Source: a virus
Taxonomy: Duplodnaviria; Heunggongvirae; Uroviricota; Caudoviricetes
Strand: one strand, 5' to 3'
DNA length: 4,991 nucleotides
Virus record (IMG/VR): IMGVR_UViG_2706794678_000008
In this document: one piece after another, positions 3-4,991 of the stretch
Layout: every line of letters begins with the position of its first letter
Position numbering within the stretch: position 1 is the first letter of the stretch
Program-made: the position numbers and the translations under genes
The notes under the pieces: model-generated
What the model saw: the letters and a program-made list of their open reading frames with translations, nothing else
What the model was told of the DNA's origin: nothing
Database searches by the model: none

Positions 3-2748
3 TCAGAAACGAACGCATCATCAAGCGCCAGTAGCGCAGCTTCCTCGGCGACGGCGGCTGCAAATTCTGCGAAGGCGGCCAAAACGTCCGAGACGAACGC
101 CAGGTCTTCTGAAACGGCAGCGGGACAGAGTGCCTCAGCTGCGGCAGGCTCAAAAACAGCGGCTGCGTCGTCTGCCAGCGCCGCGTCAACAAGTGCCGGG
201 CAGGCCTCAGCCAGTGCCACCGCCGCCGGAAAATCGGCAGAAAGCGCCGCATCGTCTGCTTCAACAGCCACAACGAAGGCTGGCGAAGCCACTGAACAGG
301 CCAGCGCAGCAGCGAGGTCTGCTTCCGCAGCGAAGACATCCGAAACGAACGCGAAAGCGTCGGAAACAAGCGCAGAATCCTCAAAAACGGCTGCCGCATC
401 GTCAGCCAGTTCGGCGGCGTCATCGGCATCATCGGCGTCTGCTTCAAAAGATGAGGCGACCAGACAAGCGTCAGCAGCGAAGAGCAGCGCCACGACGGCA
501 TCCACGAAGGCGACAGAGGCTGCTGGCAGTGCGACGGCGGNNNNNNNNNNNNNNNNNNNNNNNNNNNNNNNNNNNNNNNNNNNNNNNNNNNNNNNNNNNN
601 NNNNNNNNNNNNNNNNNNNNNNNNNNNNNNNNNNNNNNNNNNNNNNNNNNNNNNNNNNNNNNNNNNNNNNNNNNNNNNNNNNNNNNNNNNNNNNNNNNNN
701 NNNNNNNNNNNNNNNNNNNNNNNNNNNNNNNNNNNNNNNNNNNNNNNNNNNNNNNNNNNNNNNNNNNNNNNNNNNNNNNNNNNNNNNNNNNNNNNNNNNN
801 NNNNNNNNNNNNNNNNNNNNCGGCGTCATCGGCATCATCGGCGTCTGCTTCAAAAGATGAGGCGACCAGACAGGCGTCAGCAGCGAAGGGCAGCGCCACG
901 ACGGCATCCACGAAGGCGACAGAGGCTGCTGGTAGTGCGACGGCAGCAGCTCAGAGCAAAAGTACGGCGGAATCTGCAGCAACGCGCGCTGAGACAGCGG
1001 CAAAACGGGCAGAGGATATTGCATCCGCCGTGGCGCTTGAGGATGCGAGCACGACGAAAAAGGGGATAGTACAGCTCAGTAGTGCGACTAACAGCACTTC
1101 CGAGTCACTGGCGGCAACACCAAAAGCCGTTAAGGCCGCGTATGACCTGGCTAACGGGAAATACACCGCACAGGATGCAACGACAGCACAGAAAGGGATA
1201 ATCCAGCTAAGCAGCGCGACCAACAGCACGTCTGAAACGCTGGCGGCAACGCCAAAGGCAGTAAAAGCAGCCAATGACAATGCTGAGAAACGTCTGCAGA
1301 AAGATCAGAACGGTGCGGATATCCCTGGCAAAGACACCTTTACGAAAAATATTGGTGCCTGCCGTGCCTTCGGTGGGTCAGTAAGCACAACAACAGGAAA
1401 CTGGACGACTGCACAGTTTATCGAGTGGCTGGATTCTCAGGGAGCATTTAACCATCCATACTGGATGTGCAAGGGTTCCTGGTCTTATGGCAATAATAAA
1501 ATCATTACTGATACTGGCTGCGGTAATATTCATCTCGCCGGAGCTGTCATTGAAGTAATGGGGATAAAGTCAGCGATGACGATCCGCATTACCACTCCGA
1601 CCACATCCAGCGGTGGCGGAACAACCAACGCCCAGTTTACCTATATTAATCACGGAACAGATTATTCACCTGGCTGGCGAAGGGACTATAACTCCAGAAA
1701 TAAGCCAACGGCATCAGAGATCGGGGCGCTACCGTCAGGTGGAACAGCAGTATCATCAGTTAATCTGGCTTCAAAAGGTCGGGTAGCCGCGCTGACAGAC
1801 AATACGCAGGGGGCAGCAGGTCTTGAGTTATACGAGGTGTATAACAACGGATATCCAACAGCGTATGGAAATATCATTCACCTGAAAGGGATGACAGCCG
1901 TTGGCGAAGGTGAGTTACTCATCGGCTGGAGTGGTACAAGCGGTGCTCATGCTCCGGCATTTATTCGTTCACGACGGGATACGACCGACGCAAACTGGTC
2001 GCCGTGGGCGCAGCTTTACACCTCGGCTCATCCTCCTGCAGAGTTTTATCCAGTCGGTGCACCAATCCCGTGGCCATCAGATACCGTTCCGTCTGGTTAT
2101 GCCCTGATGCAGGGGCAGACTTTTGACAAATCTGCTTACCCGAAACTTGCAGCCGCTTATCCGTCAGGCGTGATCCCTGATATGCGTGGCTGGACGATTA
2201 AGGGCAAGCCCGCCAGTGGTCGTGCCGTATTGTCTCAGGAACAGGATGGCATTAAATCGCACACCCACAGCGCCAGCGCATCCAGTACGGATTTGGGGAC
2301 GAAAACCACATCGTCGTTTGATTACGGCACTAAATCCACGAATAACACCGGGGCGCATACGCACAGTCTGAGCGGCTCTACAAGTTCAGCTGGGGCCCAC
2401 CAACATAGTCAGACTGGGCCCAGAACGAATAGCGGGAGTCAACCTACTGGAATGTTTCCGGCAGGGAGTACTCAAGTTAGCGGGACTAATCAGGTTGGTA
2501 TCAGTGGCTCATTAACCAGTGGCACCTCCCAATGGGTAGGTAAATCATCTTCAGAAGGAAACCATACACACTCACTGTCCGGCACAGCAGCATCTGCGGG
2601 TGCACACGCGCATACTGTCGGTATTGGTGCTCATACGCACTCTGTTGCGATTGGTTCACATGGACACACCATCACCGTTAACGCTGCTGGTAACGCGGAA
2701 AACACCGTCAAAAACATCGCATTTAACTATATTGTGAGGCTCGCATAA
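3..2748 (+). CDS. stf: Side tail fiber protein (lambda Stf-like), 5'-partial (gene begins upstream of window); reading frame interrupted by assembly gap 541-820
   Basis: Frame 3 is open without stops from position 3 to 540 and encodes Ala/Ser/Thr-rich repeats ([13 protein letters not shown]..., [21 protein letters not shown]...). After the gap the same protein continues in frame 1 (821-2748): the fiber motif [26 protein letters not shown] twice, a globular middle region, then a His-x-His-rich tip ending ...[31 protein letters not shown], stop TAA 2746-2748. The frame-1 Arg-rich translation before the gap in the ORF track (MPQLRQ...) is out of frame; the frame shift across the gap reflects an arbitrary gap length. 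Confidence 0.9.
415..944. repeat. Direct repeat flanking the gap: 415-538 and 821-944 (124 bp, 3 mismatches), coding the [21 protein letters not shown](S/G)[18 protein letters not shown] shaft repeat
   Basis: Direct comparison of the sequence on either side of the N run; the copies are offset by 406 bp (not a multiple of 3), so the true gap length and repeat copy number are unresolved. Confidence 0.85.
541..820. other. Assembly gap (280 N) inside the repetitive tail-fiber shaft coding region
   Basis: Uninterrupted run of n from 541 to 820, flanked on both sides by the same 124-bp sequence (415-538 and 821-944). Confidence 0.97.
1063..1272 (+). repeat. Two copies of a 26-aa phage tail-fiber motif G-I-[VI][23 protein letters not shown] (1063-1140 and 1195-1272), period 132 bp
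   Basis: Protein-level repeat with largely synonymous nucleotide divergence between copies; this motif is recalled from P2 gpH, lambda Stf and T4 fiber proteins. Confidence 0.8.
2361..2572 (+). other. Hypervariable block A of the fiber tip (encodes ...[64 protein letters not shown]...)
   Basis: Region where unit A and unit B lose nucleotide similarity; bounded by conserved His-x-His-containing flanks. Confidence 0.75.
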
Positions 2749-2750
2749 TG
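2736..2750 (+). promoter_or_regulatory. Shine-Dalgarno (GAGG) plus overlapping stop/start TAATG; translational coupling of stf to the downstream ORF
   Basis: GAGG at 2736-2739, 8 nt upstream of ATG 2748; TAA 2746-2748 shares one nucleotide with ATG 2748-2750. Confidence 0.6.
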
Positions 2751-3800
2751 GCATTCAGAATGAGTGAACAAGCACGGACCATAAAAATTTATAACCTGCT
2801 GGCCGGAACTAATGAATTTATTGGTGAAGGTGACGCATATATTCCGCCTCATACAGGTCTGCCTGCAAACAGTACCGATATTGCACCGCCAGATATTCCG
2901 GCTGGTTTCGTGGCTGTTTTCAACAGTGATGAGTCATCGTGGCATCTCGTTGAAGATCATCGGGGTAAAACGGTTTATGACGTGGCTTCCGGCGACGCGT
3001 TATTTATTTCTGAACTCGGTCCGTTACCGGAAAATGTTACCTGGTTATCGCCGGAAGGGGAGTTTCAGAAGTGGAACGGCACAGCCTGGGTGAAGGATAC
3101 GGAAGCAGAAAAACTGTTCCGGATCCGGGAGGCGGAAGAAACAAAAAACAACCTGATGCAGGTAGCCAGTGAGCATATTGCGCCGCTTCAGGATGCTGCA
3201 GATCTGGAAATTGCAACGGCTTATCCGTCAGGCGTGATCCCTGATATGCGTGGCTGGACGATTAAGGGCAAACCTGCCAGTGGTCGGGCCGTATTGTCTC
3301 AGGAACAGGACGGCATTAAATCGCATACCCACAGCGCCAGCGCATCCAGTACGGATTTGGGGACGAAAACCACATCGTCGTTTGATTACGGCACTAAATC
3401 CACGAATAACACTGGTGCGCATACCCATAGTTTAAGTGGCAGCACGAATGCAGCTGGTAATCACAGCCATAGAGATGGCCGTCGATTTAACCCCAGTGTT
3501 TTTAAAGATACTTATCAATATGGTTATACAAGCTCAGGTCAAAATACCTGGGGTGTACAAGGCTCAGTAGGTATGTCTACGGGGTGGTTAGCGAATACCA
3601 GTATAGATGGTAATCATAGCCATTCACTGTCCGGCACAGCAGCATCTGCAGGTGCACACGCGCATACTGTCGGTATTGGTGCTCATACGCACTCCGTTGC
3701 GATTGGTTCACATGGACACACCATCACCGTTAACGCTGCTGGTAACGCGGAAAACACCGTCAAAAACATCGCATTTAACTATATTGTGAGGCTCGCATAA
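2748..3800 (+). CDS. Chimeric ORF: tail fiber assembly protein N-terminal domain (about aa 1-157) fused in frame to a duplicated side-tail-fiber C-terminal tip (about aa 158-350)
   Basis: ATG 2748-2750 overlaps the stf stop (TAATG) with GAGG at 2736-2739. The N-terminal 157 aa ([44 protein letters not shown]...) are near-identical to the downstream tfa. From 3219 the ORF continues into [18 protein letters not shown]...[11 protein letters not shown], matching the C-terminus of the upstream fiber except for the hypervariable block. Stop TAA 3798-3800. Whether the fusion is a functional product or a by-product of the duplication is unknown. Confidence 0.7.
3425..3624 (+). other. Hypervariable block B of the duplicated fiber tip (encodes ...[60 protein letters not shown]...)
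   Basis: Counterpart of block A in unit B; 12 bp shorter, more AT-rich and richer in aromatic residues; the same His-x-His positions are retained at both edges. Confidence 0.75.
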
Positions 3801-3802
3801 TG
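3788..3802 (+). promoter_or_regulatory. Shine-Dalgarno (GAGG) plus overlapping stop/start TAATG; translational coupling into tfa
   Basis: Identical arrangement to 2736-2750, carried within the duplicated unit: GAGG 3788-3791, TAA 3798-3800, ATG 3800-3802. Confidence 0.6.
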
Positions 3803-4381
3803 GCATTCAGAATGAGTGAACAAGCACGGACCATAAAAATTTATAACCTGCTGGCCGGAACTAATGAATTTATTGGTGAAGGTGACGCATATATTCCGCC
3901 TCATACAGGTCTGCCTGCAAACAGTACCGATATTGCACCGCCAGATATTCCGGCTGGTTTCGTGGCTGTTTTCAACAGTGATGAGTCATCGTGGCATCTC
4001 GTTGAAGATCATCGGGGTAAAACGGTTTATGACGTGGCTTCCGGCGACGCGTTATTTATTTCTGAACTCGGCTCATTACCGGAAAATGTCACCTGGTTAT
4101 CCCCGGAAGGGGAGTTTCAGAAGTGGAACGGCACAGCCTGGGTGAAAGATGCAGAAGCAGAAAAACTGTTCCGGATCCGGGAGGCGGAAGAAACAAAAAA
4201 CAGCCTGATGCAGGTAGCCAGTGAGCATATAGCGCCGCTTCAGGATGCTGTGGATCTGGAGATCGCAACGGAGAAAGAAACCTTGTTGCTGGAAGCTTGG
4301 AAAAAGTATCGGGTGTTGCTGAACCGTGTTGATACATCAACTGCACCGGATATTGAATGGCCAGTAGCACCTATAGGGTAA
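3800..4381 (+). CDS. tfa: Tail fiber assembly protein (lambda Tfa family), full length, 193 aa
   Basis: ATG 3800-3802 overlaps the preceding stop (TAATG) with GAGG at 3788-3791. The protein [44 protein letters not shown]...[34 protein letters not shown] is recalled as closely similar to lambda Tfa and E. coli prophage Tfa proteins. Stop TAA 4379-4381. Confidence 0.92.
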
Positions 4382-4991
4382 ATTCGTAATGATTACCTAA
4401 ATACGTTATTCTTTTGTTAAAAAAGTGATTTTGCTATAGGTAGGGAGTATGTTCTTGGATTAAGAATAAAAAATCGCCATGAAAGAGCTTCATGGCGAGT
4501 ACATAAACGTACAAAATGTGATGAAAGTAGAGTGGCGTAAGCCACTATATTAAGATATGACAATAGCGAAGAAAAGTAAATAACATTTTATGGACGTTTA
4601 ATTGTTAATTATAAAAACTAGAGTGCCCGATATTGTTTATCTTGCTTTAAAATAATGTACTCAAACCAAATTTTTGAGCTAAAAGCTCAAATAATATAAA
4701 TGCAATAATAATGTTTAATAAGACAATTAGCTTGCTTTGTATTTTCATTTCGGAATACTGTTAAGTAACTTTGATGACCCTAACAATAGATCGGAATTTT
4801 CTTAGAGTCAATGGTCACTGTTTTTGCTTGCAAAGCAAATGTTTTGGTGGTTATAAGTCGTCTTAATATAGTCACGCATGCAACTTGTTCCATGCGGAGA
4901 TTAAAGATTGGAATATAACGCGAAGATGGAATTAAATTACATTTGCAATAATTAATTTATTATTACTCAATAATTACCGATATTATTATTG
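4382..4991. other. AT-rich non-coding region downstream of tfa; no ORF of 60 aa or more on either strand
   Basis: Abrupt GC drop immediately after the tfa stop; only very short ORFs (35 aa or fewer) without convincing ribosome-binding sites; several small hairpins (e.g. ttgagct-aaa-agctcaa at 4674-4690). Confidence 0.6.
4462..4497 (-). terminator. Putative rho-independent terminator for a leftward (minus-strand) transcript
   Basis: Perfect 9-bp stem cgccatgaa (4475-4483) / ttcatggcg (4489-4497) with 5-nt loop. On the minus strand the hairpin is followed by AUUUUUUAUU (complement of 4465-4474). On the plus strand the run is an A-tract upstream of the stem, so it is weaker as a tfa terminator, though bidirectional action is possible. 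Confidence 0.45.

Follow-up and report, generated by a model that had tools for sequence, protein, structure and literature searches.

Why does a prophage carry two different tail-fibre tips one behind the other, on the same strand and with only one complete chaperone gene between them and the end of the module? The question is raised by a 4,991-nt stretch of DNA (here called the window) from a virus of the class Caudoviricetes, IMG/VR record IMGVR_UViG_2706794678_000008. The window covers the distal part of the tail module of a lambdoid prophage, with the fibre gene stf and the chaperone gene tfa. In it, stf with one tip (tip A) is followed by an open reading frame (ORF) that fuses the beginning of tfa to the end of a second stf with another tip (tip B), and this ORF is followed by a complete tfa. 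The gene labels of the initial annotation are correct: stf ends at 2748, the fusion lies at 2748–3800 and the complete tfa at 3800–4381. The arrangement is probably a private and recent structural variant, in which a patch of 676–887 nt from one Shigella sonnei prophage locus (locus B) was copied into another (locus A), leaving a heteroallelic tandem repeat with a unit of 1052 bp. Rather than a dedicated host-range switch, it appears to be an accident of recombination, captured ahead of its resolution.

What exactly is repeated? Two pairs of conserved blocks had been described as direct repeats, at 2155–2360 and 3219–3424 (the 5′ blocks) and at 2573–3218 and 3625–4270 (the 3′ blocks), and both pairs are borne out by ungapped comparison. 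The 5′ blocks are identical at 199 of 206 positions (96.6%, offset 1064), and the 3′ blocks at 630 of 646 (97.5%, offset 1052). A repeat search recovered both families independently (D2, 2132–2408/3196–3472; D1, 2553–2852/3605–3904). Tandem Repeats Finder reported nothing, which is uninformative because the period lies above its 500-nt limit. The repeats are direct and head-to-tail, and their ends abut exactly at 3218/3219, creating one novel joint. The longest unbroken identity is 86 nt for the 5′ blocks (2263–2348) and 376 nt for the 3′ blocks (2644–3019, equal to 3696–4071). Repeats this long and this identical cannot have arisen by chance within 5 kb. Natural tfa alleles have 5–15 differences from the window within 2644–3019, so the 376-nt identity reflects a true duplication of locus A sequence rather than general conservation. 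The conserved blocks enclose tip A in the first copy and tip B in the second, and the two tips are unrelated in sequence. The positions of all features are collected in Table 1.

Table 1. Features of the window, numbered from its first nucleotide
Feature	Position	Strand	Basis or remark
stf with tip A, contiguous part	821–2748	+	ORF list; Pfam; PDB 2XGF match
Phage tail collar domain of Stf	2056–2199	+	Pfam PF07484, residues 412–459 of the protein translated from 823
In-frame fusion ORF, 350 amino acids	2748–3800	+	Tfa residues 1–157 :: Stf C-terminal 193 residues (tip B)
Complete tfa (tail fibre assembly chaperone, 193 amino acids)	3800–4381	+	Caudo_TAP 1–130/131, E 4e-44
5′ conserved block, copy 1 (locus A allele)	2155–2360	+	All 7 differing sites A-type
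5′ conserved block, copy 2 (locus B allele)	3219–3424	+	Ungapped comparison; locus B match
3′ conserved block, copy 1: stf 3′ end and first 471 nt of tfa	2573–3218	+	
3′ conserved block, copy 2: stf 3′ end and first 471 nt of complete tfa	3625–4270	+	
Perfect 376-nt tract, copy 1	2644–3019	+	Equals 3696–4071
Tip A variable region (212 nt)	2361–2572	+	Head between His-x-His needle strands
Tip B variable region (200 nt)	3425–3624	+	100% identical to S. sonnei locus B
Mosaic segment: locus A	821–3019		
Mosaic segment: locus B (tfa up to nt 471)	3020–3218		
Mosaic segment: joint	3217–3219		
Mosaic segment: locus B (stf from AYPSG codon through tip B)	3219–3695		
Mosaic segment: locus A	3696–4991		
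Minimal locus B patch	3020–3695	+	Maximal extent 2907–3793 (676–887 nt)
Novel joint	3211–3219	+	Joins nt 471 of locus B tfa to codon GCT of AYPSG in locus B stf; crossover within CGG, 3217–3219
Run of 280 N inside stf	541–820		Scaffold gap of the draft assembly
AT-rich region 3′ of locus A	4382–4991		No ORF longer than 48 amino acids

Where do the two copies come from? The window is a base-exact mosaic of two S. sonnei prophage loci. Both have the gene order of the relatives, J-lom-stf-tfa: locus A is J-lom-stf(tip A)-tfa and supplies 821–3019 and 3696–4991, and locus B is J-lom-stf(tip B)-tfa-sitDCBA (contigs L017 and L018), adjoining sitABCD, and supplies 3020–3695. Contig L018 matches the window with zero mismatches over 2907–3218 and over 3217–3793, and the diagnostic sites within 3020–3695 (14 + 7 + 2) are all B-type. 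Outside the patch, the S. sonnei contig L006 (GCA_001249355.1) has zero mismatches to the window over 1014–3019 and 3696–4991. Ten more S. sonnei locus A contigs (L007–L016) are 100% identical to the window over 821–3019, and the locus is single copy in all eleven. The exact 572-amino-acid Stf(tip A) ORF occurs in 289 contigs named S. sonnei. It was the S. sonnei contigs that settled the parentage; the E. coli relatives L001–L003 proved unusable for it, being mosaic at ~97%–98%. Within the repeats, the first copy of the 3′ block carries A-type markers up to 2906 and B-type markers from 3020, and the second copy is B-type at 3650 and 3695 and A-type from 3794. The two switch points fall in stretches where A and B are identical, 2907–3019 (113 nt) and 3696–3793 (98 nt), which are the two longest such stretches. 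The suggestion that the tandem is an intermediate of cassette exchange between co-resident prophages is hence well supported, with zero mismatches to locus B across 3020–3695 and to locus A in the rest. Loci A and B presumably resided together in one cell.

How were the two copies joined? The partner sites of the joint in locus B are TTGCAACGG in tfa and TTGCAGCGG in stf. They share the microhomology TTGCA(A/G)CGG, which is identical at 8 of 9 positions and ends in CGG. Both sides of the joint are B-type, and locus A stf matches the microhomology less well than locus B does. An 8/9 match with a terminal 3-nt match is found at ~1.2e-4 of all duplication-forming breakpoint pairs in locus B. A joint of this kind is the mark left by illegitimate recombination or template switching at microhomologies.

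Does the joint occur elsewhere? The DNA-level searches for it covered E. coli genomes, phage records and contig collections, with Shigella genomes outside their scope; the protein collections did include S. sonnei assemblies. No complete E. coli genome out of 5426, and no phage record out of 50,697, spanned a 201-nt query across the joint, and a 26-mer across it (GAAATTGCAACGGCTTATCCGTCAGG) was absent from the GTDB representative genomes, IMG/VR and the JGI metagenomes. At the protein level, the fusion has no record, and none of 5.8 billion protein clusters contained both halves in order, whether the query was the whole fusion or a 72-amino-acid junction peptide. The tandem architecture thus recurs in none of the E. 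coli genomes, phage records, three contig collections or protein clusters searched. The joint, and with it the tandem, is private to the window sequence. Two partial matches in E. coli genomes (H31 and H32), with an apparent tfa followed by a fibre gene, are ordinary stf-tfa loci.

The sole Stf/Tfa fusions found, P0001 (496 amino acids) and P0252 (104 amino acids), have the opposite order and are deletions. These Stf′::Tfa fusions, from E. coli, join near AYPS(A/G)VI. Another E. coli protein, P0016, fuses the terminase N terminus to an Stf tip and is encoded by 480 contigs. Prophage deletions seem to end recurrently in the collar/tip region of stf.

By what path could such a mosaic arise? The product would be explained if locus A was followed as far as the 113-nt stretch shared with B (2907–3019), with a switch there into locus B tfa, which would be followed through its nt 471. 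At TTGCA(A/G)CGG the path would then leap back by 1052 nt, still within locus B, to the stf codon of AYPSG. Locus B stf would be followed through tip B, and the path would go back to locus A within the 98-nt shared stretch (3696–3793). The A-to-B switch lies at 2907–3019 and the B-to-A switch at the homologous positions 2644–2741, meaning that the return is upstream of the departure; hence, A-type sequence corresponding to 2742–2906 is present in both copies. Such a path would involve three template switches, two of them guided by ~100 nt of homology and one by microhomology, in a process resembling microhomology-mediated break-induced replication (MMBIR). Alternatively, it could comprise three successive recombination events.

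Simpler routes do not account for the product. A single reciprocal (unequal) crossover, uniting a left half from A with a right half from B, is rejected because the switch coordinates differ, their order is the “wrong” one, and 2742–2906 is duplicated. On the same evidence, the integration of a 1052-bp locus B circle by one crossover and the repair of a double-strand gap, with a duplicated B sequence as template, are both rejected as single events. A homoallelic duplication of locus A followed by conversion from B is unlikely, given that B-type sequence reaches to within 6 nt of the joint on both sides and that locus B itself lacks the joint.

Could the assembly be at fault? The joint may be unreal, or a real tip B–tip B duplication within locus B may have been threaded into locus A. 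In the case of misplacement, the assembler would have swapped paths within the shared repeats, and there would be neither a heteroallelic tandem nor a choice of tips. An artefact of either kind is unlikely, yet far from negligible. First, the source is a scaffolded short-read draft with a run of N inside stf, and the flanks of this gap are the same 124-nt stf segment (415–538 = 821–944, 98%), which is a single sequence in every relative. The 406-nt spacing of the flanks breaks the reading frame, and identity to S. sonnei locus A is only 97.6% over 1–540, as against 100% from 821 onward. The flanks look like an unmerged contig overlap, and the apparent additional repeat in the stf shaft probably does not exist. 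The sister assembly L017 likewise has 1156 N in 13.8 kb. Second, the 376-nt tract is beyond typical read length, and the placement of the joint unit in locus A hangs on how the assembler resolved repeats of 98–376 nt. Third, both A/B switches sit in the longest stretches of identity between A and B, where graph mis-joins also happen, and the two possible traversals are equal in k-mer content outside 2742–2906. Fourth, the joint occurs in no independent data set searched, and the evidence for it is one assembly.

Other evidence argues for the assembled order. The partners of the joint share only TTGCA and CGG, so overlap or de Bruijn assembly cannot have created it, and the significant microhomology at the joint (p ~1e-4) is a biological signature. 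The A-type markers of 2742–2906 stand in both copies, as they should if the order is right. Misplacement would need two false joins, across the 98- and 113-nt stretches, and thirteen of thirteen sister contigs phase these stretches consistently (L006–L016 as A-type, L017 and L018 as B-type). A copied patch thus remains the preferred reading. Besides the state of the assembly, some further points weigh against that reading. Loci A and B have been seen in different assemblies of one clonal species, and either prophage may have ceased to make particles. The three-switch mechanism is drawn from its product, and the direction of change from parsimony, with eleven single-copy contigs set against one tandem. 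In practical terms, the finding lies in a scaffolded short-read draft and in a repeat family whose assemblies are unreliable.

Which state came first, the tandem or the single copy? Removal of exactly one 1052-bp unit turns the window into contig L006, and the breakpoint could lie at any point of the 376-nt perfect tract. The complete Tfa of the window is an exact match to WP_052941040.1 of S. sonnei, which is on record from two samples only, and L006 is the only contig type on record with this exact protein. The window and L006 also have in common a cluster of three single-nucleotide polymorphisms at 4147, 4151 and 4153, which read AGA; the other S. sonnei locus A contigs and locus B read GAG, and the E. 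coli prophages L001 and L003 again read AGA. The cluster has the appearance of a very small patch of gene conversion, with a third tfa paralogue as donor. Because this patch is rare and is common to the window and L006, the two are sister lineages. It might be supposed that within this sub-lineage the tandem came first and that L006 is a true product of resolution between the 3′ blocks. Indeed, L006 is the predicted product base for base, with the crossover inside the 376-nt tract, and it has the patch that other S. sonnei lack. That history is improbable. Every other S. sonnei locus A contig inspected is single copy, from which it follows that the sub-lineage descends from a single-copy ancestor; moreover, L006 is known from two samples and the tandem from one. 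A gain on the branch of the window is one event, and a gain followed by a loss is two; by parsimony, the single copy is most likely ancestral and not the outcome of resolution.

Three of the single-copy contigs (L009, L011 and L013) carry a ~63-nt deletion in tfa, equivalent to window 2872–2934, which leaves ORFs of 42 and 115 amino acids. In some members of the species, therefore, the locus A chaperone gene is in decay, which makes phage competence doubtful. In L008 the homologous stf ORF is intact, at 1029 amino acids.

What would the tandem resolve to? The initial annotation predicted that recombination between the 5′ blocks would give stf(tip B)-tfa and that recombination between the 3′ blocks would give stf(tip A)-tfa, and both predictions hold in silico. 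Deletion between the 5′ blocks leaves an intact 637-codon C-terminal frame of stf and an intact tfa, and the product gives one ungapped 3107-nt alignment (97.4%) with the natural E. coli prophage L001. Deletion between the 3′ blocks leaves an intact stf(tip A)-tfa, which equals L006 base for base over 2,926 nt and is collinear with L002 (98.4%). The further claim, that the tandem could generate two host-range variants, stands as regards the geometry. It needs correcting in that only deletion between the 5′ blocks gives a new tip: Stf(tip A) and Tfa are both encoded in full by the tandem, and deletion between the 3′ blocks consequently alters no phenotype. Judging from the genes that are intact, the fibre phenotype should be unchanged by the tandem itself.

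Are the two deletions equally likely? The direct repeats would make the locus prone to deletion mediated by RecA or a phage recombinase. Recombination by RecA, Red and RecET depends on the length of homology, and mismatches act as a barrier. The 3′ blocks offer 376 nt of perfect identity, and the 5′ blocks at most 86 nt in sequence that is 3.4% diverged, so the two routes are expected to be very unequal. The 376-nt tract should be the most likely site of homologous deletion and, on grounds of homology length, deletions there should be at least ten times as frequent as those between the 5′ blocks. Most resolution events should return the locus to its ancestral tip A form. A few deletions should occur via the 5′ blocks, completing the replacement of tip A by tip B.

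Does the fusion ORF have a function of its own? It retains the ribosome-binding context of tfa and the complete tip B head, and it is in frame, which would happen by chance one time in three. The joint cuts Caudo_TAP at profile position 97/131, within the C-terminal segment of Tfa that aligns to Mu TfaU (PDB 5YVQ_B). Its partner site in stf (2155) lies inside the Collar domain, which Pfam does not detect in the fusion. A functional fusion with the joint at domain boundaries is rejected on these grounds. With both domains cut at the joint, the fusion ORF is best read as a by-product, and probably is one.

It is conceivable that the tandem is instead a maintained device for host range or defence. 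The device could be a selectable two-tip state, in which a RecA-dependent deletion switches tip A to tip B in one direction only. Alternatively, the Tfa′::Stf′(tip B) protein could be a decoy that masks the receptor. There is a precedent in E. coli, where a chimeric Stf protein that blocks T2 adsorption, StfE2, arises by PinQ inversion (PMC12529663). Both possibilities are very improbable. The in-frame fusion is explained by a one-in-three chance and truncates Caudo_TAP and Collar alike, the joint is private to one sequence, and a tip switch of this kind would be irreversible and strongly biased toward no change. The proposal that the tandem serves to diversify host range as a maintained state is not supported, given the private joint, the eleven single-copy S. 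sonnei locus A contigs and the absence of a recombinase gene or crossover site from the window.

Might the locus be the remnant of an invertase system? Gin and the G segment of Mu, Cin of P1, Pin and the P segment of e14, and PinQ likewise place two tips and a chaperone gene behind one constant shaft, using the Stf and Tfa families. These systems are reversible and have an inverted cassette, a serine recombinase and crossover sites, whereas the cassettes here are direct and could change only by one-way deletion. Both are on the + strand, and the inverted repeats found in the window are two weak, unrelated pairs. A search with the generic core of the crossover sites (AAACCNNGGTTT) and with the e14 site (CCTTCTCCCAAACCAA), allowing ≤3 mismatches, gave no match. 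In the S. sonnei locus A relatives, no serine-invertase (Pin) gene is called ≤6 kb downstream, only IS1 and a phage (tyrosine) integrase. The E. coli tip A relative L002 carries a pin-like recombinase, unlike S. sonnei locus A. A remnant invertase system is rejected, since crossover sites, inverted architecture and recombinase are all absent. For the same reasons, the locus does not belong with the Din-family switches (Gin/Cin/Pin/Min), from which it differs in orientation and in lacking both a recombinase and 26-bp sites.

What do the genes themselves suggest about the tips? The locus combines a fibre of the Lambda Stf/T4 gp37 type with its Tfa (Caudo_TAP) chaperone. The stf ORF runs on upstream, across the N gap, to the start of the window, and its product has the Pfam domains Phage_fiber_2, Collar and Phage_fiber. 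The C-terminal 230 residues of Stf match the tip of T4 gp37 (PDB 2XGF) with E 1.3e-81. In this alignment, His-x-His strands are conserved on either side of a variable centre, to which tips A and B align. The variable centre of 2XGF is presumably the distal head domain and its flanks the iron-binding needle strands, which would make “tip” an apt label. The conservation of gp37-like needle strands around a variable centre explains why conserved blocks flank a variable tip. T4 gp37 with its chaperone gp38 (2XGF) and Mu TfaU (5YVQ) are protein homologues of Stf and Tfa and are silent on duplication. Of the 5426 complete E. coli genomes, 25 have tip A at ≥98.6% identity and 1144 have tip B. In the window, the chaperone gene stands directly downstream of the fibre gene twice, each time with the stop/start overlap TAATG (2746–2750 and 3798–3802).

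Downstream of the complete tfa, the AT-rich region 4382–4991 is 100% identical to L006 and is also kept 3′ of tfa in E. coli prophages such as L001. A strong terminator-like hairpin on the minus strand (4498–4474), with 11 pairs followed by TTTTTTATT, lies just 3′ of tfa. The Rfam family RF02111 “IS009”, a predicted E. coli small RNA, matches the 3′ coding part of tfa (4143–4341) over its full length, and in the truncated tfa copy (3098–3219) the match stops at the joint. What the family models here therefore appears to be tfa coding sequence and not an independent RNA. It was the sole result of the Rfam scan, and a separate “IS009” RNA was dropped.

How does the tandem compare with known forms of exchange and duplication? 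Relaxed homologous recombination lets lambda swap stf-tfa with the Rac and Qin prophages at ~2e-6 (De Paepe et al. 2014, PMC3945230). That exchange involves the same two genes and co-resident lambdoid elements, with flanks that are 88%–95% identical and crossovers in perfect identity; the switches between A and B likewise fall in stretches of identity. However, those exchanges are clean replacements, whereas one switch here is illegitimate, at a 9-nt imperfect microhomology, and the product is a two-tip tandem with a fusion ORF. A second comparison is with tandem duplications in E. coli, which form at imperfect microhomologies of 4–15 bp via template switching (Slack et al. 2006, PMC1428787; for MMBIR, Hastings et al. 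2009, PMC2621351). These likewise give head-to-tail repeats at short, imperfect, G-rich microhomology, through complex events that use more than one template, and from an ancestral single-copy state. The window has direct repeats with a novel joint, microhomology beyond chance and unduplicated relatives, and so probably belongs with such duplications. There are differences: the unit here is ~1 kb, compared with 7–32 kb in the lac system, and two of the three switches use ~100 nt of homology between paralogous prophage genes. This is not a new kind of system, since stf-tfa mosaicism, microhomology-mediated duplication and the instability of direct repeats are all established.

What are the implications for the exchange of tail fibres? 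If the tandem did prove to be a selectable state or the fusion a decoy, slight as that prospect is, then co-resident prophages would, by recombining, give rise to new functions derived from fibres as well as to mosaic phages. If the tandem is confirmed by reads, it would be a rare snapshot of the exchange of a tail-fibre cassette from prophage to prophage, with donor, recipient and the intermediate before its resolution known to the base. It would also indicate that such exchange can proceed via a microhomology switch together with homologous switches of ~100 nt, rather than by a clean double crossover. Finally, the tandem yields a testable prediction as to which resolution product should dominate.

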